Shown: positions 5,570 to 29,017 of the stretch, one piece after another
Layout: every line of letters begins with the position of its first letter
Position numbering within the stretch: the first letter of the stretch is position 1
Source of the DNA: an uncultured Methanosarcinales archaeon
GTDB taxonomy: Archaea > Nanobdellota > Nanobdellia > Woesearchaeales > JACJVW01
Reading direction: 5' to 3'
NCBI GenBank assembly: GCA_964473285.1
Contig: CAYYOI010000002.1
Span: 1 to 62,277 of the forward strand
Length of the DNA: 62,277 bases
Program-made: the position numbers and the translations under genes
Notes under the pieces: model-generated
What the model was told of the DNA's origin: nothing
The model's database searches: none
Seen by the model: only the letters and a program-made list of their open reading frames with translations

Positions 5570-6717
5570 ATCACCTCATTTGGTCTTGTCCATTGACCGG
5601 GGTCGATTGCAATACCTGGATAAAGCATCGTCCCTATACCGGTCTTTACGTCGTCTGCAATGATCGCACCAAACTTTCGCCTTCCTGTGGAGCATACACT
5701 CCCGTTCACCTGCATTTTTATTTCCTTATTATCATGCCTAAGATTGGCTGTGATGGTTCCTGCGCCAATGTTCACGTTGGTTCCGATGATTGAATCACCA
5801 ATGTATGACAGGTGACCTACTGATGCACCGGAAAAGAGAAGTGAATTCTTGATCTCACATGCATTGCCTACTTTTACATTATCCTGGATGACTGTTCCTT
5901 TTCGTATGTAACAGTTCGGGCCGATGGTGCAGCCTGAACCTATATAGACCGGACCTTCGATGTATGCACCGCTTTTTATCGTGGTATTTGCACCCACCCG
6001 GACAAGGCCTTTTAGTGTAGCCCTTTTCTCAACCTTACCCTGAATGGATGGTTTCATGCGGTTGACAAAGAATTCCTGCACCTCCAATAGCTGCCAGGGA
6101 TAGCCTACTGGTAACCAGTACTCTCTTATCGACTCAAAATGAAGTTTATTTCTGTTGATAAGGGAGTGAAGATAGTCAATTATCTCGTATTCCCCTCTTG
6201 GAGAGGGTTCTAGCTTATTTTGAAATATTGCTGTGTCCAGAACATAAGCGCCAGTGTTTGCCAGATCAGAGGGTGGCTGTGAAGGCTTCTCGATCAAGGC
6301 AGTCACTAAGTCACCTTTTGATGCAATCACCCCATAGCGTTCTGGATTCTTCACCCTGGAAACAAGGATTGCATAGCGATTCTTGATAAGCCTTTTAAGA
6401 TCATCTCGATTATAGAGATCGTCACCATTCAAAACGATGAATCGGTCTTTTAAATATGGCCGGGCTGCATTGAGTGCAGCGCCAGTACCATTCACTTCGT
6501 TTTGCTCGATAAATGTAACAGGAAGATATGACGGGACTGAGAACTGCTCTTTTTTGTAGTTCACTATAACCAAGACTTCTTCTGCCAGGCCTCTCAACTG
6601 GAAGAGATTATGAGCCAGAAGTGTTGAATCAAGTACAGGAAGCATGGGTTTTGGACGTGTAAGTGTCAAGGGGTACATGCGGGTAGATTTTCCTGCTGCA
6701 AGGATTACTGCCTGCAT
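5566..6717 (-). CDS. glmU: bifunctional sugar-1-phosphate nucleotidylyltransferase/acetyltransferase (archaeal GlmU-like)
   Basis: ILAAGKSTRMYPLT..RPKPMLPV nucleotidyltransferase loop. C-terminal hexapeptide (left-handed beta-helix) repeats IGSGCTIGPNCYI.. and IGDSIIGTNVNIGAG. Confidence 0.8.
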   Translation of the reverse strand: MQAVILAAGKSTRMYPLTLTRPKPMLPVLDSTLLAHNLFQLRGLAEEVLVIVNYKKEQFSVPSYLPVTFIEQNEVNGTGAALNAARPYLKDRFIVLNGDDLYNRDDLKRLIKNRYAILVSRVKNPERYGVIASKGDLVTALIEKPSQPPSDLANTGAYVLDTAIFQNKLEPSPRGEYEIIDYLHSLINRNKLHFESIREYWLPVGYPWQLLEVQEFFVNRMKPSIQGKVEKRATLKGLVRVGANTTIKSGAYIEGPVYIGSGCTIGPNCYIRKGTVIQDNVKVGNACEIKNSLLFSGASVGHLSYIGDSIIGTNVNIGAGTITANLRHDNKEIKMQVNGSVCSTGRRKFGAIIADDVKTGIGTMLYPGIAIDPGQWTRPNEVI

Positions 6718-8000
6718 ATTTCAGCCTCCATTGTATTGTGGATACTTTCAGCATAGGATGCAAGGTCTGTTTCACTTGGCGATTCAACAAGAATCCTCAC
6801 TTTTGGTTCAGTTCCAGAGTAGCGTACAAGAACCCTGCCATTGATTTTTCTCTCAACATCAGTTATATGTCTCTGGGTCTTTAACAATGAAACCATAGGT
6901 GGCTTCCTTTCCACAGTGTAGTTCCTTAGCAACTGCGGGTATGGCTTGAAGGAAGAGACAAGGTCAGAGAGGGGTTTTTGGTAGTATTTTATGATGCGGG
7001 CAATCATAAGTGTGCTCAAAAGTCCATCACCTGTAGTGCCATAATTACGATAGATCAAATGCCCGGAGTTCTCACCTCCGAACAGCAGGTCATCCTCCTT
7101 CATCCGATAATAGACGTTGCGATCACCACATTTTTCCCGGATAACTTTTATGCCTTTGGTTGAAAGATTATCATCAAGGGCTTTGTTACTGTACTCTGTG
7201 GCAACTATGGCGTTCAGGCCTTGGGTTTCCTTGAGATATATCGCATTCAACCAAAGGAGAGTATCACCATCAATAATATTACCTTTCTCGTCGACAAATA
7301 CAGAACGGTCGCAGTCACCATCAAGTGATACGCCATAATCGGCATGGTGCCCATTGATATAAGCACTCACTTTTTTTGGATATAGGGCGCCACAGCCTTC
7401 ATTGATATTAGTGCCATCTGGTGAATCATTGATGACACTCACTTTTGCCCCTGTTTTTTGCAAAAGGGTTTGTGCCAGGAAAGAAGCAGCACCGTTTGCA
7501 CAGTCAATCACAACATGCATGCCGGATAAGTCAAAACCGGAGAGAGATTCAAGATAAGGGTCATTTTGCAAGGGTTTGATTGAGGGGGTCGACTCATAAC
7601 TATCAATATAGTTTGCAGAGTCCAATGCCTCCTCCAGGAGAGTTTCCTCATGTTTTGTCAGTTTCTCGCCCATGGGGTTGAATAGCTTTATTCCATTATC
7701 AGAAAAAGGGTTATGTGAAGCAGTTATCATGATGCCACCTGATGCGCCATGATGTCTGGTCAGGTATGCTACTGCAGGGGTAGGTATGATTCCTGCATCA
7801 AGAATCTCACCTCCAGCATCAGAGATACCCTCACATAAAGGATCTGAAAGAAGATTACAGGACTTTCTGGTGTCTTGTCCAAGTACAAGTCTCACTTTTT
7901 TGCTATTTTTGACCAATACCTGCCCTAATTTATAAAGGATTTCAGGTGTCAAAGGATATTCCAAAGGCTTTCCACGTATCCCATCTGTTCCAAATATCAT
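6705..8000 (-). CDS. glmM: phosphoglucosamine/phosphohexose mutase
   Basis: GTDGIRG, TASHNP (phosphoserine loop), LDGDCDR (Mg site), GGENSGH. I place the start at ATG 8000 (MIFGTDGIRG) because atttaaaa at 8022-8029 is a TATA box about 29 nt upstream. The track ORF extends to 8105. Confidence 0.85.
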   Translation of the reverse strand: MIFGTDGIRGKPLEYPLTPEILYKLGQVLVKNSKKVRLVLGQDTRKSCNLLSDPLCEGISDAGGEILDAGIIPTPAVAYLTRHHGASGGIMITASHNPFSDNGIKLFNPMGEKLTKHEETLLEEALDSANYIDSYESTPSIKPLQNDPYLESLSGFDLSGMHVVIDCANGAASFLAQTLLQKTGAKVSVINDSPDGTNINEGCGALYPKKVSAYINGHHADYGVSLDGDCDRSVFVDEKGNIIDGDTLLWLNAIYLKETQGLNAIVATEYSNKALDDNLSTKGIKVIREKCGDRNVYYRMKEDDLLFGGENSGHLIYRNYGTTGDGLLSTLMIARIIKYYQKPLSDLVSSFKPYPQLLRNYTVERKPPMVSLLKTQRHITDVERKINGRVLVRYSGTEPKVRILVESPSETDLASYAESIHNTMEAEICRQ

Positions 8001-8021
8001 GAAATCATGGGTAACTGAGGG

Positions 8022-8029
8022 ATTTAAAA
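8022..8029 (-). promoter_or_regulatory. putative TATA box for glmM-glmU-glmS operon
   Basis: Minus-strand ttttaaat about 29 nt upstream of ATG 8000. Confidence 0.4.
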
Positions 8030-8255
8030 CCTTAATTAAGAAGAACATGATACTAAAAAAGAGAAAAAGGAACAAAATAACTATTAGGACTGAATCAGAG
8101 GGCAAAATAAGGATTTAAAAGGAAAATAAGACCAAAATAAGATTACTGCACCAAAAGAAAGGGAAAACCAGTTAACATACTGAAGTTATCAGGCAGAAAA
8201 AAAAGATAATATTATCATAAATTTTATAATAATCAGCCTCACTTTTCCTGATAAA

Positions 8256-16118: not shown

Positions 16119-16952
16119 CTATAAGTTATCTACCACGAAGATACGGGTCTCTTCAATCAACTCATCAAAAGTGATTTGTGCTGAAAGATGTTCTCTTAGT
16201 AATTCTTCGATATAAGCTATCAATTCATCATAGAATTCTGAATCGCTTTTTTCAAGAAAGGACACTGATACAGAGGCTTTGTCACTGTCAAGCGCAAGCA
16301 CAACAAGAATCTGCTTATCTGATGTCTTCATCACTTTATCAAATGAATAATCTGCAATGGATGCGAGGGATAAGGATGTTGATTCCAGCTCTGAAAAATC
16401 CAGAACAAGGAACCTTAATTCAATATCCTGAAGTGCTTCCAATTCGTTTTCCTGGTTAGAATCTCTTCCCATTATATAGGAGTCTTTATAGATACCAGGA
16501 AGGGTGTTTGAAAGGAAATTCTGATTTGCCTGCAAAAGTTCCTGCTGGTACGAATCATTGAAAAGCTTGTCCATGTAATACTTATCTACTGTATTTGGGT
16601 CTTCTGAGTATTTTTTTTCGAAAGGATCAAAATTTACTGGGTTTATAGCCTTGCCATTCTTTTCAAGATTATGCCACACGAATTCCTTGTAGGTGTAGCC
16701 GCGTATTGCGCCATACTGTTGCCAGGCTTTCCAGAAGCTAATATCTTGGTGGGCAGTGTTTGTGTGTTCCGGAAGATCAAGGCATTGGGGTTTTCCATAA
16801 TCAAAAGAAGGAAGCTCATCAATTTCGACCTCGCTATCCAGGAAAAGGTCGTAATAGATATCCAGCTTATTGTCTGACAGTTGGGGCACATAAAGAGATG
16901 AACAATCTGCAAACGCAAAAGGTATTAGGAGGAATAGCAAAAGGTATCTCAT
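16119..16952 (-). CDS. secreted hypothetical protein (last gene of pilin/hydrolase operon)
   Basis: Signal-peptide-like MRYLLLFLLIPFAFADC. Overlaps the upstream ORF by 4 nt. Confidence 0.6.
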   Translation of the reverse strand: MRYLLLFLLIPFAFADCSSLYVPQLSDNKLDIYYDLFLDSEVEIDELPSFDYGKPQCLDLPEHTNTAHQDISFWKAWQQYGAIRGYTYKEFVWHNLEKNGKAINPVNFDPFEKKYSEDPNTVDKYYMDKLFNDSYQQELLQANQNFLSNTLPGIYKDSYIMGRDSNQENELEALQDIELRFLVLDFSELESTSLSLASIADYSFDKVMKTSDKQILVVLALDSDKASVSVSFLEKSDSEFYDELIAYIEELLREHLSAQITFDELIEETRIFVVDNL

Positions 16953-18589
16953 TGTATCAGACCTCCGGTCTTTGTTATGACATCAAACCTTGTGGTGAGG
17001 TGATCATCCTGGTTACCTAAAGTGATTGGGCCAAAATCTGACCTGAAGGTAAGTGCGAACTTATGAATAAGGTCACCATCATCAACACAGAAACGATAAG
17101 TCCTTTTTGGATGGGTTATGCATACATCCTCTTTTTCAACAACTGATAAACTTTTATTTACTAAAAGATATTTATCATAAGTATGTATTTGAGTACTTGG
17201 CTTGTATTCTTTTCCTTGTTTAAAATTATCTCCAAATAGGTAAAGACGGGGTTCACTATTAACAATCTGAATCTCCTCTCTTGTAAAAGTTTGGGGGAAA
17301 TTAATATATTCGTTTGCATCTCTAAGAGGGATATCAAGCGTTGTATCAAACGCATCTCCGCCAATTTGGCCTTCTATTACTGTAACATCATCTTTTTCAC
17401 TGAGTATGAACTTTCCGGGGATATCAGGAAGGGGGCAAGTGCATGATTGTCCAGGTGTATCAAGGCACTGCTGTATTGATTCGACCATCTGATAGAACTT
17501 TCCTTCATTACCAGAAAGGCATTCATCACCGTATTTCCAGTCATGGTGGAAACTGCTGGTTTTTGATTCGATGCAGAAATCAAGATAGTCTGATGTCTTG
17601 CATGTCTCTGCAAGGATCTTTGCCTCATCGCGAACTGTATGAAAGATGTTAAGATCATAAGGAATATCAATACTGAAACCAATACCAAAGGAAAGGGTTG
17701 TCCTTAGGTTCCTTGAAGGTGGAGGCATGTTAAAGCGTTGCATTGCTTTTTCAACATAGTCCTCAGTGTCCTTAAGGTCATGTCCTTGATGAATGTCCTT
17801 GAAGACCTCTTGAAACACAAGAATCCTGCCGATATAGAGGGAGCGTCCTGTGGTGTCATCAATGTGCTGGATATAGGATTCTATACCTGGCCCATACTTT
17901 TCCTTAAGTTCTGCCACTGTTCCAGCACCCATGTTATATGCCAGGATAGCGTCAACCATCACATCACCTGAAAACTCTTTCTCAAGAGACTGAAGGTTGC
18001 GGTTAAATAATTTAAGGGATAATCGCACTGCCAGCTCATCGTTATCAATTATTTCTTTTGGTGGTCCAGTGAAACCCATATCAAGTGCAACAGGATACAT
18101 TATCTGGGTGAGGCCATAACTGCAGGAGAACTGGTGGAATTCTTTTGTCCCATGACTTTCATCAAAACCACACCTATCCCCTCCTTTATAGGGACCATTC
18201 TCATCAGGTTTACAATAGATTGGGTCATCACAGTGTTCTTCACATAAATCATAAAATGATTTTCTCTCCTTACATAATTCACTTTCCTCATTTTTCTGAC
18301 AAGCGACAAAAGGCTCTTCATAATTATCCTCGCATCTGATAGGAGAGTCTGAAAAATAATCGCTTTCAACATAGAAAAGGCCTGCATATAGATAGGGTTC
18401 AGGAAGACCCATATCTTCTGCCTCTGAGATTATCATATCCAATGTGTCTTTGTCATCAAAGTTTTTCATTTTGTCAATCCGTGAGGAAACATCCTCTATG
18501 AGCCTTTTTTTTGCCTTTTCTTGCTCTGTTGCCATTGCTGAACCTAGTAAAATAAGAAGCAGTATCCCGATTAATATTTTGGTTTTCAT
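16949..18589 (-). CDS. secreted protein with SLT (GH23 lytic transglycosylase)-like domain
   Basis: Signal peptide MKTKILIGILLLILLGSAMA. SLT hallmarks FYVES (E75-S76), YGLTQIM (159-165) and AYNMGAGTV (217-225), with a Cys-rich insert between the ES and GLxQ motifs. Confidence 0.65.
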   Translation of the reverse strand: MKTKILIGILLLILLGSAMATEQEKAKKRLIEDVSSRIDKMKNFDDKDTLDMIISEAEDMGLPEPYLYAGLFYVESDYFSDSPIRCEDNYEEPFVACQKNEESELCKERKSFYDLCEEHCDDPIYCKPDENGPYKGGDRCGFDESHGTKEFHQFSCSYGLTQIMYPVALDMGFTGPPKEIIDNDELAVRLSLKLFNRNLQSLEKEFSGDVMVDAILAYNMGAGTVAELKEKYGPGIESYIQHIDDTTGRSLYIGRILVFQEVFKDIHQGHDLKDTEDYVEKAMQRFNMPPPSRNLRTTLSFGIGFSIDIPYDLNIFHTVRDEAKILAETCKTSDYLDFCIESKTSSFHHDWKYGDECLSGNEGKFYQMVESIQQCLDTPGQSCTCPLPDIPGKFILSEKDDVTVIEGQIGGDAFDTTLDIPLRDANEYINFPQTFTREEIQIVNSEPRLYLFGDNFKQGKEYKPSTQIHTYDKYLLVNKSLSVVEKEDVCITHPKRTYRFCVDDGDLIHKFALTFRSDFGPITLGNQDDHLTTRFDVITKTGGLIQ

Positions 18590-19710
18590 GGGCTCAGGTG
18601 TATATGGTCTTTGTGGCTATCTATTAAGGAAGCATATTGGGCTTGTGTGCAAGGTGTTTTTCCCTTGTAACACTTATCATTATCAGGACCATAAAATTCT
18701 CCATCCAAGTTCTTCTTATAATAATCAGCTATGAGTTCATAGCAATCTCCAAAAGTTTCTCCCCTGCCATCATAATACTCGTATGCGTATACAATCTTAC
18801 CATCCTTGTCCCTGCATCTGGAGATATCGGCAGCATTTCCAATGTAATGGTTGCTTGTATCTGAATGACTACCGGTGGAGATTGAAGAGATATAAAGTCT
18901 TGCCTTGCAATCCTCATGGCCTTTACATTCCTGGTCATGCCATGCCTCTCCAAGGTCCAGAAGAACGCTGGCTAACTCTTTGGTCATGGCATTACCATCC
19001 TTTGCATCTGAAGCGATTTCAAGATGATTTGCAAGGGGGTCCTTGATCGAGTAAAGGGTGCTGAAATCCTCTTTTGGGAATAAGGCGCATGCACCAGGAG
19101 TGCTTCGTTCCTCGTTTGTACAAGAAGGTGAATGCAATGCAGTGGCTTGATCATAATCAACAATAGGGGGTGAGACCATACCACCATAACTTTGGACTGA
19201 TTTTGTAGTGATACCTTTTCTCAGGGTTACACCAGGGCCTACGATATCAAACCTGGTGGTGTCAGAAATATCAAGATTTGCAAAAGAGAGGGAATCAATT
19301 CCTGCTTCCTCCAGGACATCAAAGAAAAGCTCATTGAAGTAGGATTCTGTTGCAGAGTTAGGAGACTCTGGTGCGCACTCTTCAAAGGATTTATCCTCTG
19401 TCTGCCAGAGCTGGTATCCCTGGTATTGTCCACAATCTTTGCCTTTTGCCTGGGTGCCCTGAGAAGGTTTGACCCATCCTTTGCTTGCGGCAAGCTCTAA
19501 GGCCTGCTTGAGGAAGGATTGGGTATGCATCTGCAGGAATGCCTCTTTGTCCGCTGCTTCCTGGTATTGCTGATAAATTGAGAATTGCTGGTGACCGAGG
19601 TTATAATCTATTTTCTCATCCTTATTGCTTGCAACAGAGTAGATCTGAACCATTATTATAATTACAACTAGGACAATTCCTACATGAAATATCATCCCTT
19701 TCTTGTTCAT
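18586..19710 (-). CDS. pilin-like-anchored protein with C-terminal LAS/M15-type zinc peptidase motifs
   Basis: N-terminus MNKKG|MIFHVGIVLVVIIIMVQIY. The C-terminus has SNHYIGNAAD (H-x6-D) and HKDHIHLS (HxH), as in VanY/M15 peptidoglycan peptidases. Confidence 0.5.
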   Translation of the reverse strand: MNKKGMIFHVGIVLVVIIIMVQIYSVASNKDEKIDYNLGHQQFSIYQQYQEAADKEAFLQMHTQSFLKQALELAASKGWVKPSQGTQAKGKDCGQYQGYQLWQTEDKSFEECAPESPNSATESYFNELFFDVLEEAGIDSLSFANLDISDTTRFDIVGPGVTLRKGITTKSVQSYGGMVSPPIVDYDQATALHSPSCTNEERSTPGACALFPKEDFSTLYSIKDPLANHLEIASDAKDGNAMTKELASVLLDLGEAWHDQECKGHEDCKARLYISSISTGSHSDTSNHYIGNAADISRCRDKDGKIVYAYEYYDGRGETFGDCYELIADYYKKNLDGEFYGPDNDKCYKGKTPCTQAQYASLIDSHKDHIHLSP

Positions 19711-20303
19711 TTTTTTACATACTCTACTCTTAGAGTTACATTTATCGGTGTTCCATCATTTAACAAGATGGTTTTTGAGACTATATCTGGTGTCGAAAAA
19801 TAATTTTTGCATGACCCTTTTCCTCTAAACACATTTTCTGAAAATATCCTGCCTTTTGGTTTTTGGTGCCTTCCAAACTCGTCCGTAGGATTATTCGGAT
19901 CATTACTGGTATGCTTCTCCTTATTAAAATAGATTATATAGGTTGCGATGCAGTCAATGAATTCCTTGTCTTCTGTAACTACGTCCGTAAAGGTATGTTC
20001 AGAAAAATCCAGGATATCCTGGACTTTGCCCTTAAAGGAAGTGATATTTTGCTTGCACGCCTTCCCAGCGGAACATGCTTCATAAGTTTTTGAGTAATGG
20101 TCCCTGATATTCATGCCATCAACTTCTGTCCTGAGGATATTATTCAGCATCATGTCCATTGTAAGATGCCTGGATTCTTCTTCTATGTTAAACTCTATTG
20201 GGGTGTTTGGGCTATAAAGCAAAAAGAAGATGATGAAAACAACTATAAGTGCGATAACTGACATAACAAGTACTGCTGATTCTGAGACTTGTCCTTTCTT
20301 CAT
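19707..20303 (-). CDS. pilin-like hypothetical protein
   Basis: MKKG|QVSESAVLVMSVIALIVVFIIFFLLY is a class III-type signal. ATGA-type overlaps on both sides. Confidence 0.6.
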   Translation of the reverse strand: MKKGQVSESAVLVMSVIALIVVFIIFFLLYSPNTPIEFNIEEESRHLTMDMMLNNILRTEVDGMNIRDHYSKTYEACSAGKACKQNITSFKGKVQDILDFSEHTFTDVVTEDKEFIDCIATYIIYFNKEKHTSNDPNNPTDEFGRHQKPKGRIFSENVFRGKGSCKNYFSTPDIVSKTILLNDGTPINVTLRVEYVKK

Positions 20304-20809
20304 TGTTTCACCACTGTTATAGCCAATCTTCCTGGGTCTAGTGAACCTTTATCATTTACGAGTACATAAATGGATTGCCTGACTTTTGTTACAGATCCAG
20401 GACCTTTCCCACTATATGATATAGGCTCAAGTTTCATATAGGCCTTCTTATTATAATAAATTGTGTCTGTAGAATCTTTTTTTATTAGCTCAATCTTTGC
20501 AGCTATGTGGTCCTCGAAATCACTGCTATAGTTTATTGCAGATTCATCAAACCTGCTAAAATCTATTATTCCTGGCTGCATCTTGTCAAGGACAGAATCA
20601 TAATGGGAGATTCCATGGGGTGTATAAAGAAGGCGATGGATGAAAAGGGTGGCTTCAACCTCTCTAGTATCCACTTTTTCATTTACTGTTGAATTCAGAA
20701 TCATGACCATGGCTACACCTATGATAAGTATCATGAAGAGTTTCCATATGTAATATACTCCTGTAAGGGAGACACTACCCTTTGTAAAATTCAGTAATCC
20801 CATCTGCAA
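20300..20809 (-). CDS. membrane-anchored hypothetical protein
   Basis: FTKG|SVSLTG followed by a TM helix. Start uncertain: ATG 20809 or 20803 overlaps the upstream gene; ATG 20734 is an alternative. Confidence 0.5.
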   Translation of the reverse strand: MQMGLLNFTKGSVSLTGVYYIWKLFMILIIGVAMVMILNSTVNEKVDTREVEATLFIHRLLYTPHGISHYDSVLDKMQPGIIDFSRFDESAINYSSDFEDHIAAKIELIKKDSTDTIYYNKKAYMKLEPISYSGKGPGSVTKVRQSIYVLVNDKGSLDPGRLAITVVKQ

Positions 20810-21677
20810 TTGTCTGCCAGATATCTTTTATCTTTTTGTTTTCCTTTAGTATCGAATCATCATTGAGAACATTACCTATTTCAAGACTTACAAATGAAGC
20901 ACCAGGTTTTCTCTCAACCCTGACCTGGTTTGCTCCCAATTTCAGGTTTGCCTGTTCAAATCTTTCCTTTAGTATACAGGAGAGTTTCCTTGCCCTTGAA
21001 TCTGTCTGATCATAGGAGATTATTATCGGAGTTACTGTCTTTTGACCCATTCCTGCCTTCATCTCAATCAAAAGATCATAGTTTTGAAAATCTTGCTTGT
21101 CCTGTGTGGGATCCTCAGAAGTAAGTTTCACATTGGCATTAAGATAACCTTTGACATTATCTGCCAGGACCCACATGATATCCTCATCAACACCTTTCTC
21201 TGCTTTGTGAGGGTCAAGCACAATGAGATTTTTCTTCCAATCAGGATCTTTTGTATCAAGGGATTTGCTACAGGTAGAGGCTCCTGTATCCTCTGCGATA
21301 TATACCCTGTTCTTATTCTCCAGGTAAATCCTGGAGGGGTTCTCCATATCCTCTGCCCTGAAAGGAATAAGATCATTTTTTGCAAAGGGATAGTATATCT
21401 TGGAGTCATCCTCTACTGTCACACGGTCTTTGAAAGAGAAGGAAAACTTTGAAAGGTCAACCTTGCTAGGATCATAAAGGTAACTTATCTCATAGGGAGA
21501 TGCAGAGATTGTATCTACCAGAAGAGCAAGGTCTTTTGAAAGGTAGGTCTTCTCATGATAAGTGCTATCCTCATAAGCATTGATTCTTAACAGCATGAAA
21601 ACCAAAAGTGCAGCGATCAAGATCAGGTCAAGAATATAAACCAACATAGCTTCTTGGTTTCCAGTATCGCTGTCCAT
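20775..21677 (-). CDS. membrane-anchored protein with Amidase_3 (MurNAc-L-Ala amidase)-like C-terminal domain
   Basis: N-terminal TM helix. Residues 150-298 (IVLDPHKAEKG..DEDIMWVLADNV..DLLIEMKAG..SFVSLEIGNVLNDD..IADGITEFY) follow the Amidase_3 pattern (xDxGH, E, SxHxN, vExGf, iA.gI..y), but the second His position is Lys. Confidence 0.4.
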   Translation of the reverse strand: MDSDTGNQEAMLVYILDLILIAALLVFMLLRINAYEDSTYHEKTYLSKDLALLVDTISASPYEISYLYDPSKVDLSKFSFSFKDRVTVEDDSKIYYPFAKNDLIPFRAEDMENPSRIYLENKNRVYIAEDTGASTCSKSLDTKDPDWKKNLIVLDPHKAEKGVDEDIMWVLADNVKGYLNANVKLTSEDPTQDKQDFQNYDLLIEMKAGMGQKTVTPIIISYDQTDSRARKLSCILKERFEQANLKLGANQVRVERKPGASFVSLEIGNVLNDDSILKENKKIKDIWQTIADGITEFYKG

Positions 21678-21714
21678 GAGAGAGGCTTGGAAGACTGAGT
21701 TTATATGATTTTTG

Positions 21715-23274
21715 CTATTGGCAACCTGAGTCTGTGCATTTTCCTACAATACAGGCTTCTATCTCTTTATTATCTGGACCATGCTCACATATGCACAAGG
21801 TTTGCACATCCATTTGCTTAATGCACATAGTAAGGTCACATATCTCCTGAAGTGAATCATCATATTCATTTTCGAACGTCTTACATTTTTGATATAGTTC
21901 TTCATAGGTATGTTTTTTATCCTCATCTTTATAGAGTTCGTAGAGTTTTTTGATACCTTCATCAGTCAGAAACCTTAATTCTTTTGCATACCCATAAGCC
22001 TGAGGTTTAATGTATTTATCTCCCTCATCTGACCACCAGCCCTCATAATATTTTTCCTTTTCTTTCTCTAAGGAATCCACCTGCTTTTCAGAAAGTCCAA
22101 ACAAGCCCTTGAACATAATTATGTCAGCATGATTCAATGATGATTTAGACATTGCCTCAATTATAATATCAATATCATCTTTTGTAAGATCATTGATAGT
22201 ATCAAGATCGGTTCCAAAATTCAACCAAAAGTCCTTCCAATTGTTTTCCCAGACAAAAGGCCTGAAATGGTCATGGATGAAGGTCTCTTCTGATCTGGAG
22301 GTTTCACTAAGAGCCTTTTCCAATTCTTCTTCATGTCCTTTCTGTACCTTTACCTTTTCATTCAATTCTTTGATCTCTTGGGTAAGCTTTTTTTTCTTGC
22401 CCTTTTCATTGTAGAGTTCTTTGCGGTATTCAATGAAATAATCATTGAAATCATTAGTCAAGTCAAGAGGTGCCAAAAGGATATAGGTAGTGCCCTGGTA
22501 TTCCATCTTTTCCAGATAAAGATTTCGATTGCCAAAAAAAGCCTCAACCTTTTTTCCGTTGTTACCCAGGTTTTGAGAGCCATCCCACCAACCATATCTT
22601 TGAAAGCCTAACAAAAAAAGATAGCCATAAGAACCAGCCCATTCATCTGAGAAATCAGCAAGGGAAATATCTTTATTTTTACCCTGATTCTGGGGAGGAA
22701 AACTCTGAGTCAGTTCATCAAATCCAATATTCTCTTCCTTCTTAAGAATATCCAGTAATCCATCAGTCTGGTCGCCAAACCTATCAAAAGTGTAGCCTGC
22801 TAATATTATTTCTTCTTTAAATACCCGGCAGTTAACTATATCTTCTTTCTTGATAAGACATATACAAGCACTATTACCGCATTCAACAGGCCTTTCAACT
22901 TTTTTATTATTGATGAAATTCCAATCATCACGAAAGCTGTTTTTTATTGGTGCTATCATCTGCTTGTCTGTCGTATATCTTAACTCAAAGGTGTCGGCAA
23001 AAAATTGGGTAGTAGGGTCATGATTCTTATCAAAGCCAATGATTGAATAACCTTCTTCAAGGGTTATGGGGATTACATTCTGGCGGAAAGTGTCAGTTGA
23101 ATCGATCAACCCATTGATATTTTGAGTAAGGACATTGAAGCTTTTTTCTGTCGGTCCATCTACACCAAAAACATTGGAGAGAAAACCAAAAATCGGTGTG
23201 AAGAGAACGAATATCAGGATTGCGGCCAATGTAAGGCCAACAACCTCACTCATTACCATCTGGGCCTTAGCCAT
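21715..23274 (-). CDS. large pilin-like hypothetical protein
   Basis: MAKA|QMVMSEVVGLTLAAILIFVLF class III-like N-terminus, 519 aa, central K/E coiled coil, Cys-rich C-terminus (CICEHG..CIVGKCTDSGC). Confidence 0.6.
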   Translation of the reverse strand: MAKAQMVMSEVVGLTLAAILIFVLFTPIFGFLSNVFGVDGPTEKSFNVLTQNINGLIDSTDTFRQNVIPITLEEGYSIIGFDKNHDPTTQFFADTFELRYTTDKQMIAPIKNSFRDDWNFINNKKVERPVECGNSACICLIKKEDIVNCRVFKEEIILAGYTFDRFGDQTDGLLDILKKEENIGFDELTQSFPPQNQGKNKDISLADFSDEWAGSYGYLFLLGFQRYGWWDGSQNLGNNGKKVEAFFGNRNLYLEKMEYQGTTYILLAPLDLTNDFNDYFIEYRKELYNEKGKKKKLTQEIKELNEKVKVQKGHEEELEKALSETSRSEETFIHDHFRPFVWENNWKDFWLNFGTDLDTINDLTKDDIDIIIEAMSKSSLNHADIIMFKGLFGLSEKQVDSLEKEKEKYYEGWWSDEGDKYIKPQAYGYAKELRFLTDEGIKKLYELYKDEDKKHTYEELYQKCKTFENEYDDSLQEICDLTMCIKQMDVQTLCICEHGPDNKEIEACIVGKCTDSGCQ

Positions 23275-23734
23275 CGCAATCCCCTGCTATGAATCTAAAG
23301 GTATTGGAGTTAGTTTCATCAGTACACTCGCTTCCTTCAAGAACATAATCCTCACAAGAGCTATCCATACCATCTTTACCAACGCCGCATTGAGTTTCTC
23401 TTCCTTCTAACCTATGCCTGCATGTTACCTTGTCTGGATCATCTCTTGTCTCTTCTGTTTCACAGGCATCAGCCATACCATCACCATCAGTGTCAATTGT
23501 ACTATCTCCATCAATACAGGGATCACATGTATCTGGATAGCCGTCCCCATCACAATCTGGAAGGTCATTGACCATTATCTCTGATTCCTTGCAACCATCC
23601 AATTGATTCTTGACCTTGATAGGATCCAGAACAGCAGAAGAAGTGTCTAGCACCTTACTTTTTATCATAGATCCTGCGAAAAAAATGATTACTATAGCCA
23701 AAATGAGCCCAACAATCTGTCCAAAACCCATCAC
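23267..23734 (-). CDS. pilin-like protein with thrombospondin type-3-like Ca-binding Asp/Cys repeats
   Basis: MMGFG|QIVGLILAIVIIFFAG N-terminus, then DCDGDGYPDTCDPCIDGDSTIDTDGDGMADACE (DxDxDGxxDxxDxC-type repeats). Confidence 0.55.
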   Translation of the reverse strand: MMGFGQIVGLILAIVIIFFAGSMIKSKVLDTSSAVLDPIKVKNQLDGCKESEIMVNDLPDCDGDGYPDTCDPCIDGDSTIDTDGDGMADACETEETRDDPDKVTCRHRLEGRETQCGVGKDGMDSSCEDYVLEGSECTDETNSNTFRFIAGDCDG

Positions 23735-23735
23735 A

Positions 23736-23993
23736 TCACCCTATGGCTTTGCAGCACTTGATTATGTCTCCTTTCTTCTCTGTATCGTCGCCAGTATATT
23801 TCCCTGGTACCAATAACTGACCAGGACCACAGTCGCTTGAGGTTTGCTCTTCAGGGCATTCATAAGAAGTGGAAGTGTCAAAAAGACCAAATCGATCATT
23901 CATTATATACAAGGAGAACGCCAATATGACAAGCATTATGATCATCCCTACAATCATCTGCATAGAAAGACCTACACCTTTCTTTGTATTCAT
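23736..23993 (-). CDS. Cys-rich mini-pilin (paralog E)
   Basis: ATG 23993 forms an ATGA overlap with the upstream stop. MNTKKG|VGLSMQMIVGMIIMLVILAF; 4 Cys; ends ..GDIIKCCKAIG. Confidence 0.7.
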   Translation of the reverse strand: MNTKKGVGLSMQMIVGMIIMLVILAFSLYIMNDRFGLFDTSTSYECPEEQTSSDCGPGQLLVPGKYTGDDTEKKGDIIKCCKAIG

Positions 23994-24250
23994 TCTACAC
24001 AACACCTTACATAAGCTCCTTCATCATGTCCATCATAGGGTTCTTTCAGTTGGATAATCTCTATTTTTCCCTCGCATTCACCATCTATGGCTTTTTCATA
24101 ATCCTCGCTGGAACAGTCTTTGGAGTCTGTAGCTTCTGTAAATACCCTTGCCTTGTCACCAAATATGAAAAGGATTACGACAAGCACGGCCATAGCTACA
24201 ATAGCTATGATTATGAAATTGATTGAAATAGATATTCCTTTCTTCATCAA
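23990..24250 (-). CDS. Cys-rich mini-pilin (paralog D)
   Basis: MMKKG|ISISINFIIIAIVAMAVLVVILFIF. The N-terminal ~30 aa are near-identical to paralog C. Ends ..YVRCCVE. Confidence 0.7.
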   Translation of the reverse strand: MMKKGISISINFIIIAIVAMAVLVVILFIFGDKARVFTEATDSKDCSSEDYEKAIDGECEGKIEIIQLKEPYDGHDEGAYVRCCVE

Positions 24251-24531
24251 TAATCACCCATTGGTACACAACATTTGACAACATCGCCTTTCTCTGCAGT
24301 TTCTTCTAATTCTTTGCATTCTGTTCTCAAAGGGCGACTGTTTATCACCTGCCCTTCCGGGCAATCGTTTTCTTCTGCAGCCTTAGCATCAGGACACTCG
24401 CAGTATTTGGTGGTAGCACTTGTAAACACCTGCGCCTTGTTATTGAATATGAAAAGAATGACAACCAAAACAGATATAGCAATGATTGCAATGATGATGA
24501 AATTGATTGAAATGGATATTCCTTTCTTCAT
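24247..24531 (-). CDS. Cys-rich mini-pilin (paralog C)
   Basis: MKKG|ISISINFIIIAIIAISVLVVILFIF; 6 Cys; ends ..GDVVKCCVPMGDY. Confidence 0.7.
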   Translation of the reverse strand: MKKGISISINFIIIAIIAISVLVVILFIFNNKAQVFTSATTKYCECPDAKAAEENDCPEGQVINSRPLRTECKELEETAEKGDVVKCCVPMGDY

Positions 24532-24569
24532 GAGAGACCTTAAAATTCTGCCATTAATAAAATTTACTG

Positions 24570-25025
24570 TTAATGGCTATGATGGTTGCATGGACCATTG
24601 CAGGGTCTGACGCAATGCTGGGAAAAGATACAGTCAAAATCTTTGAAATCACAGCATGTCCAATCTTCTTTATCTGCTTCAAGATTCTTTGTGATCTCAG
24701 GATAATCTTCAAGTTTCTTTATATATTCCTCTGCCTTGTTTTCTTTCTCGAGCGCTAGATAGGAGAGGGCAATGTAGAGGTTGGCCTCATGATATATATC
24801 TCCTGATAATTCATCCATTCTTTTAAATATCTGGATAGCTTCTGAATATTCTGCTTTAGAGTAAAGTTTCTTGCCTTCTTTCATTAAATCAAGATATTTT
24901 TCCTGTGTCTCTGAGATCTGCGGATCTATACCAAAGGTGAATTTATTAAATAGCCAGCTTCCTGCAGCAACAATCAATATTCCGATTACAAGCCACATGA
25001 GCATATTGTATGTCTGTCCTTTCAT
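24570..25025 (-). CDS. pilin-like-anchored TPR-like protein
   Basis: ATG 25025 gives MKG|QTYNMLMWLVIGILIVAAGSWLF (the track uses TTG 25034). The helical-repeat segment AEYSEAIQIFKRM..ANLYIALSYLALEKENKAEEYI is TPR-like. Cys-rich tail. Confidence 0.55.
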   Translation of the reverse strand: MKGQTYNMLMWLVIGILIVAAGSWLFNKFTFGIDPQISETQEKYLDLMKEGKKLYSKAEYSEAIQIFKRMDELSGDIYHEANLYIALSYLALEKENKAEEYIKKLEDYPEITKNLEADKEDWTCCDFKDFDCIFSQHCVRPCNGPCNHHSH

Positions 25026-25026
25026 T

Positions 25027-25167
25027 CTACCCAAAACTGAATATGCTTGTTCCTACCTGCATAAGGATAGGAGTGTATTTCCAGACCAAATAAACTGTGA
25101 ATGCAATCCCCAGCAATACAAAAAAAATCTTTACTATGTTATCTGTCAGAATATTTCCCTTGTCCAT
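25027..25167 (-). CDS. unannotated 46-aa single-TM micro-ORF
   Basis: Hand translation: MDKGNILTDNIVKIFFVLLGIAFTVYLVWKYTPILMQVGTSIFSFG*. The ATG directly follows the upstream TGA (25168-25170), and the stop is 1 nt before the next ATG. Below the track size cutoff. Confidence 0.5.
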   Translation of the reverse strand: MDKGNILTDNIVKIFFVLLGIAFTVYLVWKYTPILMQVGTSIFSFG

Positions 25168-26031
25168 TCAATCACCTTGCTTTGATGGAAAGTAATCACA
25201 TTGCAACTCTTTAAAGCTTTCGCCTGTATGCTCACGAAGAAGGACCATTGCCAAATGTGCCTCTTCACCTCCTAAATAAGTTTTAATCGCACTGGTAGCC
25301 CCTGCTATGAGACCTACTGCACCTGAAATTGCAATTGTAACTAATCCAACCCCTCCTGTAACAACTGTAACCAATACATAGCCGGTTACTGCGGCTGCAC
25401 CTGCGCCTGTACCTATCCCTATAATTGCAGTAGTTTGCTTTTTGCCAAGGGTGTTTATCCAGTTTTCAATCGTACTTGTCCCTTTGGCATAGACAAACAC
25501 GATAGAATAATCCTTGGCTGTATCTATTACCTTATCATCGATCTGTTTCGCATTTTGATTTTCAATGTATTTATGAGCGAGGGAACTCTCATAATTCATG
25601 AGATAATCCATATAAGTTATGGTATCATTGTATTTAGTCTGGGCGAGATAGGTTGAAAATCCATCTATCTCTTTTTCCTCTTTGAAGCTTAAAATGGAAC
25701 ATACAGAGCAATAGACTTGCCTTTTTTCAAAGATCTCCGGCTTTCCTCTCAAAAAATTATCCCAACAGGTGACCATCTCATCAGCAATGGCTTTTTTTAT
25801 GTCTGAATCCTTTTTAGCATCAATCTCCACTTCTTTGGTTGGGCACTTGAGTTCCTGTGGCTCAAGCTGGGCGCCTTTTATGTGCATGAGTTCCATGGTC
25901 TTGACACTGGAGCGGCACATCTTATCCTCATGGTTCAATGAATCAGAGGCAAATATTGTGTTGTAGAAGCCAAATATGACTAGTAGGACCATCACGATTG
26001 CAAACACTTTATGTATAAGTTCAAAATACAT
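25168..26031 (-). CDS. membrane protein, paralog of 26035..26760 with Gly/Ala-rich TM segment
   Basis: N-terminal TM helix. A Cys-patterned domain is shared with the upstream ORF. Contains TAIIGIGTGAGAAAVTGYVLVTVVTGGVGLVTIAISGAVGLIAGA. Confidence 0.6.
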   Translation of the reverse strand: MYFELIHKVFAIVMVLLVIFGFYNTIFASDSLNHEDKMCRSSVKTMELMHIKGAQLEPQELKCPTKEVEIDAKKDSDIKKAIADEMVTCWDNFLRGKPEIFEKRQVYCSVCSILSFKEEKEIDGFSTYLAQTKYNDTITYMDYLMNYESSLAHKYIENQNAKQIDDKVIDTAKDYSIVFVYAKGTSTIENWINTLGKKQTTAIIGIGTGAGAAAVTGYVLVTVVTGGVGLVTIAISGAVGLIAGATSAIKTYLGGEEAHLAMVLLREHTGESFKELQCDYFPSKQGD

Positions 26032-26034
26032 TTT

Positions 26035-26760
26035 TCAGTTAGCCAGGAATGTACAGCCATAATCGTCTAATTCTTTAGGAAGGATAAAGTCAATAATAGC
26101 ATAATTCTCATTATCTAAAGCCCACCCGGTAATGAAATTTCCTACTCTGCCAACAGTATTTTCTTTATCCAACCAACGGCCGGTTCCATCATGTACATAC
26201 AATAGATAATATTCCTTATCAAGATCTATTTCTTTCTTATAATCAAAATCTTCTGAGTTCGCTGATTTGGTGAGATAGTCTGCATAAGTTGTACAGTTAT
26301 CACACATGCGAGTTGATTTAAGATATTCTCCAAAATCGATCTTATCTACCTCATTTGCAAGGGATTTCTCGAACTTGATCTCAGCACATATGAGGCATGC
26401 CCTGGTACCCTCAAATCTTTCCTGCCGGAAGGGATTTATTTTTCCTTCTCCAGTCATGTAGTTACAAATACGGGCCTCTTCTGCCAGAAGATGAGATATA
26501 TCAGTTTTTATAACATCCCCTTTCTTTTCGACATCACTTTTTTCAATCTCCAGCTCATAGCGTGGACAGTCAAAATCAATTGCTATCTTGTTCCCTGCCA
26601 ATTTTGTGTTTGCAGCTGCAAGAATGCTGAACTTGCATAACTCAATCTGCTCCTTTCGGCTTGCTTCACCAGTAAATCCATTGATAAAAGCAAACATGAC
26701 AACGACTGTGAGAAGAATTGCAATCATCTTTACCATCTGAGAATTGACCTGAGCTTTCAT
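26035..26760 (-). CDS. pilin-like hypothetical protein, paralog of 25168..26031
   Basis: MKA|QVNSQMVKMIAILLTVVVMFAF. Shared pattern C..CP..E(V/L)EI..C..ACLICAEIKFEK..DYL. Confidence 0.6.
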   Translation of the reverse strand: MKAQVNSQMVKMIAILLTVVVMFAFINGFTGEASRKEQIELCKFSILAAANTKLAGNKIAIDFDCPRYELEIEKSDVEKKGDVIKTDISHLLAEEARICNYMTGEGKINPFRQERFEGTRACLICAEIKFEKSLANEVDKIDFGEYLKSTRMCDNCTTYADYLTKSANSEDFDYKKEIDLDKEYYLLYVHDGTGRWLDKENTVGRVGNFITGWALDNENYAIIDFILPKELDDYGCTFLAN

Positions 26761-26858
26761 AGTCCCATAAAAATCTTGACAGCAATGGTCAAAACAATCG
26801 CCATGAGCATCGCCATTGCGATCATCATTATTGTCTGGCTCTTAAGCTGCCCTTTCAT
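26757..26858 (-). CDS. unannotated 33-aa pilin-stub micro-ORF
   Basis: Hand translation: MKG|QLKSQTIMMIAMAMLMAIVLTIAVKIFMGL*. Its stop TGA overlaps the ATG of the downstream gene (ctATGA). It consists only of a class III-like leader plus hydrophobic helix. Confidence 0.5.
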   Translation of the reverse strand: MKGQLKSQTIMMIAMAMLMAIVLTIAVKIFMGL

Positions 26859-26890
26859 AGAGTTATACCGAAAAATAGAATATATAAATG

Positions 26891-27142
26891 TTACGACCCT
26901 GCACTATAGACAGGTATACAGCAGACATTAGCACAATTAGTGTTTGAAGAGTCTCCTACTTTTGCCTCGTTGGAATAGCAGCCATCTTCCCTGCACGTTC
27001 CGCCTTGATTTTCACAGGAACGTAATTCTGTGCCGAATATCTGGCTTCTACCGGAAAAGATTATCGCAATCACTACCAGCACAAGCAAGGCAATCGCAGC
27101 AATTATAATAGTATTTAAAGAAAGACTTTGTGCCTTCCTCAT
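26891..27142 (-). CDS. Cys-rich mini-pilin (paralog B)
   Basis: MRKA|QSLSLNTIIIAAIALLVLVVIAIIF; 6 Cys; ..CANVCCIPVYSAGS. Confidence 0.7.
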   Translation of the reverse strand: MRKAQSLSLNTIIIAAIALLVLVVIAIIFSGRSQIFGTELRSCENQGGTCREDGCYSNEAKVGDSSNTNCANVCCIPVYSAGS

Positions 27143-27414
27143 ATCTCCTCACCAGGCATGCAACACTTCATGTCTTCATTTACAGACCCATCGTTATTCA
27201 AGCATACCGCTGTTCCAATATTTCTTTCGATCATACCGCCTGGACAGTCACTGCCATCTGGAACACAACTTCCTCCAAGATTTTCGCAACTCTTGGAGTC
27301 ACTGACAAATATGCTGCTACGTGACATAAATACAACAGAAAGAATAACAAGTACAAGCAATGCCAAAGCTGCGATGATAATAACATTCATTGATAATCCT
27401 TGACCTTTTCGCAT
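27139..27414 (-). CDS. Cys-rich mini-pilin (paralog A), first gene of operon
   Basis: ATG 27414 gives MRKG|QGLSMNVIIIAALALLVLVILSVVF, with the SD-like GAGGTG 6 nt upstream (the track uses GTG 27423). 6 Cys; ..DMKCCMPGEEI. Confidence 0.7.
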   Translation of the reverse strand: MRKGQGLSMNVIIIAALALLVLVILSVVFMSRSSIFVSDSKSCENLGGSCVPDGSDCPGGMIERNIGTAVCLNNDGSVNEDMKCCMPGEEI

Positions 27415-27450
27415 GAGATTCACCTCTACTCTAGCCTGAGAGCAAGTAGT

Positions 27451-27458: not shown

Positions 27459-27920
27459 TTATCTATGCAGATCCAGGAGTTTTAAGTCACTCATGAAGCA
27501 CTCACGCTTGAGATCATCGATTATATAATGGACATCCACTTTTTCTATGGTAAATTTCTCTTCGACCTTCTCCAGAAATTCCTCAAACTCCTTCAGATGG
27601 CGAAAAACCCCTTCACAAAGGAAGTCGAATCCATTATTGATACGATAAAGGGAATTTACATGGAGATGGGAGAGCATGTATTCGCGAAGCGATTCCCTAC
27701 AGGATTTGTTCACCTTGAGCATGATATTTGCCCGTAAGCTATAACCCAGCTCGTTGAAATCAATTAGAGAGGTGTGCTTTTTTATGAGGCCGCCTCCGTT
27801 ATGGCGCAGACGCTCATAAATTGTAGAGACTGGAATCTTTAGCTTCTTACTCATATTGGTAAGTGATTCTCGGGCATTGCTTCGCAAGCACGTTATTATC
27901 TGCATATCCTTTTGGTTCAT
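27459..27920 (-). CDS. Lrp/AsnC-family transcriptional regulator
   Basis: MNQKDMQIITCLRSNARESLTNMSKKLKIPVSTIYERLRH (HTH) plus a C-terminal RAM-like domain. ATG 27920 is preceded by GGAGGTG; the track start is TTG 27941. Confidence 0.8.
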   Translation of the reverse strand: MNQKDMQIITCLRSNARESLTNMSKKLKIPVSTIYERLRHNGGGLIKKHTSLIDFNELGYSLRANIMLKVNKSCRESLREYMLSHLHVNSLYRINNGFDFLCEGVFRHLKEFEEFLEKVEEKFTIEKVDVHYIIDDLKRECFMSDLKLLDLHR

Positions 27921-28087
27921 TGGGAACACCTCCATTTTCAAGTTGATTGGATTTACTCCACCTTTCCTGAAAATCTATTCTTGAAAAGGAGCCCATAGTA
28001 TATATAATTGATTCTTAAATCTTATATATTGTCTTATAATTATATAATTAAGAAAATTTTTTATATCTGGAGGATTTTTCTTTATAT

Positions 28088-29017
28088 ATGCAAAGGAAAG
28101 TAATCCAGCTAGCGGGGAAGACACTGGTTGTGAGCCTGCCGAACAAATGGGTAAAGCAGTTCGGGATACAAAAAGGGGATGAGCTGGATATCCTTGAAGA
28201 AGATAACCAACTGGTGATCCGTAGCGGTATTAGGAGAGAAGAAAGTAAGAATATATTTATTGATATATCAGATAGTAAAGAGAGAATTATAAGGTGGACT
28301 CTCTCTGCACTTCATAAGAAAGGATATGATGAAATACAAGTTAAATTTGAACATATGGATAAACTACGAATACTTGAGGACCTAATACGGAACCGATTTA
28401 TTGGGTTTGCTATTGTTCATCAAACAGAATCACTCTGCATAATAAGAAACATAACGAAAGAAGCTGAGATGGAGTTTGATTCTATTTTAAGAAGAGGCTT
28501 CTTGGTCACCGAATCCCTGGCAGAAAGCACTTTGGATCTTATGAAAAGAAAGAAATTCAAAGAGATGTCTGAACTAGTTCAACTTGAAAAAACGAATAAT
28601 CAATTGACAAATTTTTGCGAAAGAATAATCAATAAAGGAAAATATCCTGTTGCTAAAGATAGCCATTTTATGTATGTCATTGCCTGGAATCTAGAGAAAG
28701 TAGCGGATGATTACAAGTATATATGTGAATACCTTAGCAGATTAGATAATCCTGTAATTGATCAACCTACAGTTGAAATATTTGAAAGAATAAACCACTA
28801 TTTCAAAGAATTTTATTATCTATTCTATAAATTTAAGATAGAAGAACTTAATGAACTGGATAAGAAAAGAAAGATAATCATTAAAGATATCATTGAAGTA
28901 TGTGAACATGCCAACAAAGAAAACACAGTAATCTTAAACTATCTTCTCAGTAATATCTACAAAATTGTTGATTTCCATGCCTCTACAATTGCGTTGAATA
29001 GTGAGCCTGAAGATTGA
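28088..29017 (+). CDS. AbrB/SpoVT-domain plus PhoU-like regulator
   Basis: N-terminus VIQLAGKTLVVSLPNKWVKQFGIQKGDELDI is an AbrB-type swapped-hairpin motif. The helical C-terminal region has PhoU-like repeats, an architecture common in archaea. Confidence 0.55.
   Translation: MQRKVIQLAGKTLVVSLPNKWVKQFGIQKGDELDILEEDNQLVIRSGIRREESKNIFIDISDSKERIIRWTLSALHKKGYDEIQVKFEHMDKLRILEDLIRNRFIGFAIVHQTESLCIIRNITKEAEMEFDSILRRGFLVTESLAESTLDLMKRKKFKEMSELVQLEKTNNQLTNFCERIINKGKYPVAKDSHFMYVIAWNLEKVADDYKYICEYLSRLDNPVIDQPTVEIFERINHYFKEFYYLFYKFKIEELNELDKKRKIIIKDIIEVCEHANKENTVILNYLLSNIYKIVDFHASTIALNSEPED

Follow-up and report, generated by a model that had tools for sequence, protein, structure and literature searches.

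Why would an archaeon of a kind not known to make murein carry, close together among pilin-like genes, three proteins with the folds of enzymes that cut bacterial murein? This question is raised by a contig of an uncultured archaeon (GenBank assembly GCA_964473285.1, contig CAYYOI010000002.1), of which positions 1 to 62,277, hereafter called the window, were analysed. A first-pass annotation, made from the letters alone, had pointed to these three proteins in the distal part of an operon, and they are referred to as A, B, and C. How Woesearchaeota-like DPANN archaea live, and on which hosts, is still being worked out, and isolated SLT genes were earlier used to argue that some of these archaea parasitise bacteria.

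The answer that we favour on balance, with restrained confidence, is that these genes make up the distal half of a conserved DPANN operon for a type-IV-filament-like, or at least pilin-anchored, surface apparatus: its larger subunits would combine a pilin-like carrier with a murein-hydrolase module, and the apparatus would be aimed at bacterial walls. Three lines of observation bear on this answer. One is the state of the catalytic residues in the three proteins, another is the exchange of hydrolase modules among related loci, and the last is the arrangement of the operon together with the N-termini of its products. All operon genes lie on the minus strand, and coordinates are those of the window. 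Related loci and related proteins are denoted by handles beginning with L and P, respectively.

Protein A

Protein A (16949..18589; 546 amino acids (aa)) consists of an N-terminal signal or anchor, a GH23/SLT domain, and a Cys-containing C-terminal module. The coordinates and motifs given for it in the first-pass annotation, like those for B and C, were found to be exact: FYVES starts at residue 72 (its Glu is E75), YGLTQIM at residue 158, and AYNMGAG at residue 217. The SLT catalytic region (17885..18427; residues ~55–235) accordingly carries E75-S76, G159-L-T-Q162, and A217-Y-N-M-G221. Between motifs I and II lies a Cys-rich insert of 69 residues with 7 Cys (18131..18337; residues 85–153). 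Because this insert separates the two motifs, the match of native A to Pfam SLT (PF01464; residues 144–231, E = 7.6e-4) omits the E-S motif, and its 19.5 bits stay just under the gathering score of 21.3. When residues 85–153 are removed, the match rises to 24.5 bits (E = 2.1e-5) and covers profile positions 3–107 of 117, the E-S motif included.

The orthologues (P0002, P0003, P0004, and a full-length one at L014) agree with this assignment to SLT/GH23, which had been proposed from the motifs. The L014 orthologue (L014:13370-15040) matches Pfam SLT with E = 1.7e-10 and 40.9 bits, P0004 matches PF01464 with E = 9e-6 and 25.7 bits, and P0003 bears the NCBI name "lytic transglycosylase domain-containing protein". 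The searches of PDB chains with the A sequence and with an A profile returned nothing useful. The motifs E-S, GL[TG]Q, and AYNxG are kept in four of the five lineages aligned, the exception being L002, to which we return below. Of the four other sequences aligned, three (L004, P0004, and L014) have an insert at the same position, with several Cys invariant or conserved, while it is mostly absent from the L002 orthologue. The insert may serve as a disulfide-braced loop, a metal site, or a binding surface.

The C-terminal module of A (~residues 300–510) is conserved, contains Cys, and recurs at L011, L017, L020, and L024. At the other end, the N-terminus is plain Sec-type, unlike the class-III carriers described below. 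Its hydrophobic segment is kept in the orthologues, and the long open reading frame (ORF) with the ATGA overlap is therefore the right start. Judged from its sequence, A is a GH23/SLT-type enzyme and is probably active as a lytic transglycosylase.

Protein B

Protein B (18586..19710; 374 aa) has a class-III-like N-terminus (MNKKG/MIFHVGIVLVV, with the slash at the end of the leader), an N-module of ~residues 1–130, and a C-terminal LAS-type domain (18589..18993; residues ~240–374). In the latter, SNHYIGNAAD starts at residue 286 and HKDHIHL at residue 366, giving the pattern S286-x-H288-x2-G291-x-A293-x-D295 and H366-x2-H369-x-H371. The eight residues S286, H288, G291, A293, D295, H366, H369, and H371 are invariant across the four B orthologues aligned, and the zinc-motif residues are likewise retained in a fifth, more distant one at L014.

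These motifs had been read as an LAS/M15 signature. The assignment to LAS (clan MD) is supported by the invariant motifs and, weakly, by fold matches with E-values above 0.01, whereas that to M15 is too specific: neither B nor its isolated domain matched Pfam, including the Peptidase_M15 families (PF01427, PF02557, PF13539, and others), at E ≤ 10, and no NCBIfam family matched B. Using a low-confidence AlphaFold2 (AF2) model of B, a Foldseek search of the PDB gave LAS folds as all of the best 10 matches, among them MepA and the N-domains of Shh and Dhh (probability 0.96, E = 0.058), and the best match in BFVD was a Hedgehog-like phage protein. A profile of the B domain aligned TGxHSxxSxHxxGxAxDI weakly (E = 0.14) to the segment GHHSEESLHYEGRAVDI of Shh, the established zinc-ligand-bearing part of that protein; the C-terminal DHIHLS of B also resembles AHIHCS of Shh. 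The B orthologue P0008 gave weak matches to Extensin-like_C (0.042) and Peptidase_M15_4 (0.17). A direct search of B against PDB chains gave nothing useful, and a metagenome scan with the catalytic domain found zero relatives; the scan of genome contigs used N-terminal patterns of B and recovered only the 3 metagenome-assembled genomes (MAGs) already found.

B shares with the LAS/clan MD families (Hedgehog N, MepA of M74, M15, and VanX/VanY) the zinc motifs H-x6-D and H-x-H, and the context SxHxxGxAxD is as in Hedgehog and M15. It differs from these families in that no Pfam model matches it and in a long Cys-containing insertion: the distance from D295 to H371 is 76 residues, as against 35 in Shh. 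An assignment to the VanY subtype was rejected, the hhalign alignment to the VanY-type domain of L017 covering only 13 residues with the HxxGxAxD motif. Although the lines of evidence are individually weak, they agree with one another, and we accept the C-terminal domain of B as an LAS/clan MD zinc peptidase, which cannot be filed under Pfam M15. B is probably active as such a peptidase, given the residues that it keeps.

At L002, the B orthologue beside a decayed A orthologue retains all of the LAS residues. Across lineages, then, individual hydrolase modules degenerate separately from one another.

Protein C

Protein C (20775..21677; 300 aa) is a fusion of a pilin-like N-domain (21288..21677; residues 1–130) and an Amidase_3-fold domain (20778..21230; residues ~150–300, alpha/beta). 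The AF2 model built on the C-family alignment (predicted local distance difference test score (pLDDT) 86.8) has a "lollipop" pilin N-domain with a long helix at residues 5–59 and a beta-sheet at residues 64–129. When this model was compared with the PDB by Foldseek, the best 21 matches were all Amidase_3, with CwlV (1jwq) at the top (E = 1.6e-8, TM 0.67). Direct sequence and profile searches of C against PDB chains returned nothing useful, and against Pfam Amidase_3 (PF01520) C itself reaches 12.6 bits, below 27. In the C family, however, 20 of the 35 full-length members match that model, with a best E of 4.9e-18. The Amidase_3 pattern noticed in the first-pass annotation is borne out by the fold.

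The motifs LDPH, IEMKAG, LEIGNV, and IADGI start at residues 154, 204, 265, and 290, respectively. C shares with the Amidase_3 enzymes (CwlV, AmiA/B/C, and Rv3717) the fold and the catalytic Glu in E-x-G-N; E266 in LEIGN is invariant among the four C orthologues, and Asp164 aligns with the zinc ligand Glu. It differs from them in being fused behind a pilin-like domain and in its zinc ligands. The replacement of the second zinc His by Lys, which had been noticed earlier, is K207, and this position is K, K, A, or Q in C and its three close orthologues. In addition, the first zinc His (H157 in C) is not conserved, being H, Y, S, or Q in the same four proteins. Two of the three zinc ligands are lost, and C is therefore probably non-catalytic, in line with the earlier suspicion of a catalytically altered copy. 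The same loss, in this genome and in the three close orthologues, tells against the earlier view of a complete murein-dismantling toolkit; only relatives, L014 for example, seem from their genes to have the full set. C is a modular pilin-like protein that, to judge by its residues, has most likely lost metal-dependent catalysis.

The breadth of the C family was obtained by an exhaustive HMMER search, which gave 233 cluster representatives (50% identity) at E ≤ 1e-3, while a word-indexed homologue search had found 2–4 relatives for each of A, B, and C. Many of the family members are 300–370 aa long and match over the full length, and many others are ~140 aa long and match residues 1–125 only. 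The complete site, DPGHG..E..S[IL]H..E[IL]GN, is present in 12 of the 35 full-length members, the other 23 lacking the full motif set. One member with the full site, P0020, matches E. coli AmiC with E = 5.4e-5.

Exchange of hydrolase modules among related loci

Synteny of the whole operon, flanks included, was found in three other Woesearchaeota/Nanobdellota MAGs and at L014. On one side, the conserved flanks encode AbrB-domain and AsnC regulators; the opposite flank has genes for an RsgA-like GTPase, a Ski2-type helicase, and an ABC transporter. The operon core, which is found in ~10 further metagenomic loci, comprises two pairs of small pilin-like genes, p241, p287, C, p169, a B-like gene, and an A-like gene. 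The neighbouring genes are archaeal at L011 and L013 (RadA and RPA) and at L014 (flanks of the window type), and the shorter loci are unassignable.

A clear pattern was found at the position of B. The B-type N-module, defined in this comparison as residues 1–130, is joined to Peptidase_M15/VanY at L017 (Pfam E = 2e-8 and 1.9e-7, respectively), to GH73 glucosaminidase at L020 (E = 4.7e-25), to SLT at L016 (E = 3.7e-13) and at L013 (E = 1.3e-8), and to Peptidase_M23 at L011 (E = 3.6e-12). In the last case, the B-position protein (L011 12539-14377) is a three-part fusion, in which the M23 domain is followed by the C-terminal module of A. At L014, an amidase-pilin of canonical type is encoded together with a B orthologue and two SLT proteins, and L013 encodes a further Amidase_3-containing protein. 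At L011, the C homologue (P0045; 10001-11854) and the homologue of p169, the gene after C, form one fused protein.

Different hydrolases thus occur on a constant B-type carrier, and selection at this locus therefore retains "some murein hydrolase" and no single fold. This swapping of modules, as read from the gene sequences, is in our view what argues most strongly for the hydrolysis of murein, or at the least its recognition, as the function under selection here.

Pilin-like character and layout of the operon

The operon comprises 16 genes (16119-27423), with A, B, and C in its distal part. Neighbouring genes are separated by gaps of at most ~130 nt or overlap by 4 nt, and 4-nt overlaps of the ATGA type join, in this order, the gene downstream of C, then B, then A, and then the last gene. 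The link between the hydrolases and the pilin genes that had been asserted earlier is upheld by this tight packing and these overlaps, and also by the synteny in other Woesearchaeota and the presence of other hydrolases on the same carriers.

The products of all 16 ORFs start with a hydrophobic helix, in most cases behind a short basic leader that ends in G, A, Q, or S and resembles a class-III signal. Examples of the leaders are MNKKG/MIFHVGIVLVV, MKKGQ/VSES, MRKAQS/LSLNTIII, and MKKG/ISISINFIII. The class-III pattern, namely a short polar or basic leader ending in G or A and then ~20 hydrophobic residues, was called by eye on the sequence rather than by a calibrated predictor, and it is seen in B, a 198-aa protein, five small ORFs, and others. 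The pilin-like or transmembrane tethering suggested in the first-pass annotation agrees with these N-termini, which are pilin-like or class-III-like in B and C and a signal or anchor in A.

The remaining genes of the operon are as follows. The last gene (16119..16952) encodes a 277-aa protein with a signal peptide and overlaps A by 4 nt. Upstream of B, the gene for the 198-aa pilin-like protein (19707..20303), whose N-terminus is MKKGQ followed by VSESAVLVMSVIALIVV (beginning VSES), is kept in related loci, and p169 (20300..20809), a 169-aa protein with an N-terminal hydrophobic helix, always comes next after C. The upstream part of the operon (21715..27423) contains core genes kept in related loci. 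Within it are five small Cys-rich pilin-like genes with 4–6 Cys each (27139-27423, 26891-27142, 24247-24531, 23990-24250, and 23736-24005) and genes for larger proteins with N-terminal hydrophobic helices (26035-26760, 25168-26031, 24570-25034, 23267-23734, and 21715-23274). Among the larger proteins, the one encoded at 25168-26031 (287 aa) is among the most widely kept across the related loci (E down to 1e-116) and ends in a Gly/Ala-rich hydrophobic segment. The one encoded at 23267-23734 (155 aa, 10 Cys) has Asp-rich DxDxDG-like repeats that resemble the calcium-binding thrombospondin type 3 repeats of bacteria (Pfam TSP3_bac, a weak match with E = 0.91). No meaningful NCBIfam match was obtained for any operon protein.

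The operon is flanked upstream by genes for an AsnC/Lrp-type regulator (27459-27941, minus strand) and an AbrB/SpoVT (MazE)-domain protein (28088-29017, plus strand), and the same pair is found upstream of the operon at L002, L004, and L014. The GC content of the operon is similar to that of the remaining window. Outside the operon, a 287-aa protein encoded at 249-1112 on the plus strand, beside the gene for 5S rRNA (96-212), matches Pfam Arch_flagellin (E = 2.2e-8), a family with class-III signals.

The window itself is archaeal, its ORFs including SecY with a Sec61-type plug, Hef, TrmB, NFACT, and fused primase subunits; the primase ORF (46547-48037, minus strand; 496 aa) contains small- and large-subunit domains, that is, a fused PriS-PriL. 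The nearest relatives of the operon proteins come from MAGs labelled Candidatus Woesearchaeota or Nanobdellota archaeon. The organism is a small symbiont-type DPANN archaeon, Woesearchaeota-like.

Proposed function and alternative explanations

In the apparatus that we favour, A would act as a GH23 lytic transglycosylase whose export depends on a conventional signal peptide or anchor, and B would be an LAS-type zinc peptidase displayed on its class-III-signal carrier module. C would most likely be a peptidoglycan-recognising or scaffolding module instead of an enzyme. The carrier proteins would be exported and cleaved by a prepilin peptidase, and the N-termini together with the fold of C suggest that operon products may be assembled into a filament. 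Since murein is not something that this archaeon is known to produce, a bacterial wall, that of a partner or of prey, is the likely substrate. On contact, the apparatus would bind peptidoglycan, open it locally, or strip it.

Several observations weigh against this proposal. The Pfam pilin models did not match the small operon ORFs at E ≤ 1. The scanned ORFs of the window included no assembly ATPase, platform protein, or prepilin peptidase, and none was seen within 10 kb of the operon in the related loci, although such genes could lie in other parts of the genome. The AF2 model of B has a mean pLDDT of 50.7, with moderate values for residues 240–374 and values below 50 for residues 279–288, which is too low a confidence for a reading of its active-site geometry. 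C is degenerate in this genome, and the A orthologue at L002 (11107-12687; Ca. Woesearchaeota HK-STAS-Nano-5) has lost the catalytic Glu and the AYN motif, with IISN in place of YVES and AHDIG in place of AYNMG. Catalysis is thus not always maintained.

The alternative that survives best, although we consider it unlikely, is that A and B are set free from the cell, by shedding or secretion, as bacteriolysins for killing competitors or for breaking down wall debris as a source of nutrients. The pilin-like genes would then be functionally unrelated or would serve solely for secretion, as a pseudopilus or a device resembling the type II secretion system. Secreted archaeal peptidoglycan hydrolases do kill bacteria from the supernatant (PMC12352652), and the plain Sec-type N-terminus of A would suit such a free enzyme. 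A cytoplasmic LD-carboxypeptidase of family S66 (LdcA/MccF type) encoded in the window (53900-54850, plus strand) would also suit the use of imported murein peptides. This protein has no signal peptide, gives Pfam matches with E = 5e-39 and 1e-28, and adjoins no other wall genes. In bacteria, S66 LD-carboxypeptidases trim murein tetrapeptides during recycling, and the archaeal gene could, by its family membership, point to such use of imported peptides. What counts against free enzymes is that the carrier N-modules of B and C persist in loci that have diverged widely, whereas the catalytic modules change; this speaks for tethering or presentation as a part of what the proteins do. The gene overlaps, too, link the enzymes to the pilin-like genes.

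It is less likely still that the hydrolases open a glycan/peptide wall polymer of the archaeon itself for filament assembly, much as specialised lytic transglycosylases do for the type IV pili, flagella, and secretion systems of bacteria. Dedicated SLT, M23, or amidase partners are common in bacterial trans-envelope machines, which lends this explanation some general support. The window also encodes, besides the LD-carboxypeptidase, the enzymes for UDP-N-acetylglucosamine (UDP-GlcNAc): three adjacent genes on the minus strand (3971-8105) specify a GlmS-like protein (SIS and GATase domains), a GlmU-like protein (nucleotidyl transferase and hexapeptide domains), and a GlmM-like phosphohexomutase. 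UDP-GlcNAc is, however, required for N-glycans regardless, and no gene for a Mur ligase, MraY, MurG, or a penicillin-binding protein was found among the scanned window ORFs. Murein is not known from DPANN archaea. Moreover, homologues of peptidoglycan hydrolases are rare in the archaeal classes that make pseudomurein (PMC12352652).

We give slightly less credence again to the idea that the proteins are chiefly non-enzymatic adhesins, the hydrolase folds having been recruited as peptidoglycan- or glycan-binding heads on pilins, with catalysis dispensable. The loss of the zinc site in C, here and in many relatives (23 of 35 lack the full motif set), and the missing catalytic Glu in the A orthologue of L002 speak for it. 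There is also precedent in the degenerate LytM factors EnvC and NlpD, inactive hydrolase folds with binding or regulatory roles. Yet no orthologue departs from B at the catalytic residues, four of the five lineages of A have the complete set of three SLT motifs, and the modules swapped in at other loci score as normal family members.

That these genes form an endolysin-type lysis cassette, brought in by an integrated virus or a mobile element, is very improbable, and the idea was rejected on synteny: SLT, M15, and Amidase_3 are typical endolysin and virion-hydrolase domains, and the best BFVD match of B is a phage protein, but the gene order, including the housekeeping flanks (the RsgA-like GTPase, Ski2-type helicase, and ABC transporter), is kept in four genomes, there are no capsid, terminase, or integrase genes, and the GC content is like that of the remaining window.

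Relation to known systems

The action of SLT-domain proteins of Woesearchaeota/Pacearchaeota on bacterial walls has already been proposed in print (PMC8204110, PMC9723730, PMC10936187), and Castelle et al. (2021; PMC8204110) cite Rinke (2013) and Castelle (2015) on such proteins. The fam00969 SLT proteins (PMC8204110; Vigneron et al. 2022, PMC9723730) are, like A, DPANN proteins of the GH23/SLT type; they are predicted to be extracellular and were proposed to bind or degrade the walls of bacterial hosts or prey. They were reported from Pfam or CAZy annotation as single very large proteins of up to ~3000 aa, whereas A has 546 aa. A differs further in its Cys-rich insert, which takes its score below the Pfam threshold, and in its place in a pilin-like operon with two more wall-hydrolase folds, a linkage that is not described in those two reports.

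A survey of 2025 found that homologues of peptidoglycan hydrolases are prominent and diverse in Nanoarchaeota, and it showed that a haloarchaeal hydrolase kills bacteria (PMC12352652). The Woldo/Danwoldo proteins of Halogranum salarium described there are, as would be the case for those of the window, archaeon-encoded peptidoglycan hydrolases of bacterial type aimed at bacteria. That survey required a catalytic and a peptidoglycan-binding domain as well as Sec or Tat signals, whereas the window proteins have a pilin-like class-III carrier and no recognisable peptidoglycan-binding domain.

The closest design is found in the modular type IV pilins PilB and PilC of Streptococcus sanguinis (Raynaud et al. 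2021, PMC8179133), which likewise consist of a pilin module and a grafted functional module. Grafted modules are expected at the filament tip, and peptidase modules are predicted among the bacterial examples (PMC8179133). Those pilins are bacterial, carry the IPR012902 motif, and bear adhesin modules (vWA, lectin), while the window proteins are archaeal, bear murein hydrolase folds, and are putative pilus subunits. An ecological analogue is provided by the type IV pili of Saccharibacteria of the candidate phyla radiation, in which ultrasmall episymbionts engage a bacterial host (PMC9894109); these pili are bacterial and have canonical machinery, and no hydrolase-bearing pilins were described for them. 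A census of archaeal type IV filaments from 2026 (10.64898/2026.04.22.720090) makes no mention of peptidoglycan, amidase, or transglycosylase, and no description of this operon or of pilin-tethered archaeal murein hydrolases was found in the literature searched.

Implications

The present locus turns the hint given by SLT genes into a defined and conserved gene cluster with two enzymes whose catalytic residues are intact and with a family of pilin-amidases. Its carrier module accepts five different wall-hydrolase folds. The locus also suggests a reason why surveys keyed to Sec/Tat signals and peptidoglycan-binding domains would overlook many wall hydrolases of archaea. It would further extend the design principle of the "modular pilin" from bacteria to archaea.

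A bolder proposal, which we offer as tentative and hold to be less probable than the surface apparatus favoured above, is that DPANN archaea of the Woesearchaeota/Pacearchaeota type build a type IV filament whose tip or minor subunits are interchangeable GH23, GH73, M15/LAS, M23, and Amidase_3 cassettes, with inactivated versions serving as wall-recognition heads. Such a filament would be a cell-wall-drilling pilus, by which these archaea could attach to and feed on bacteria. If this is true, the pilus would be a dedicated apparatus for cross-domain episymbiosis or predation.

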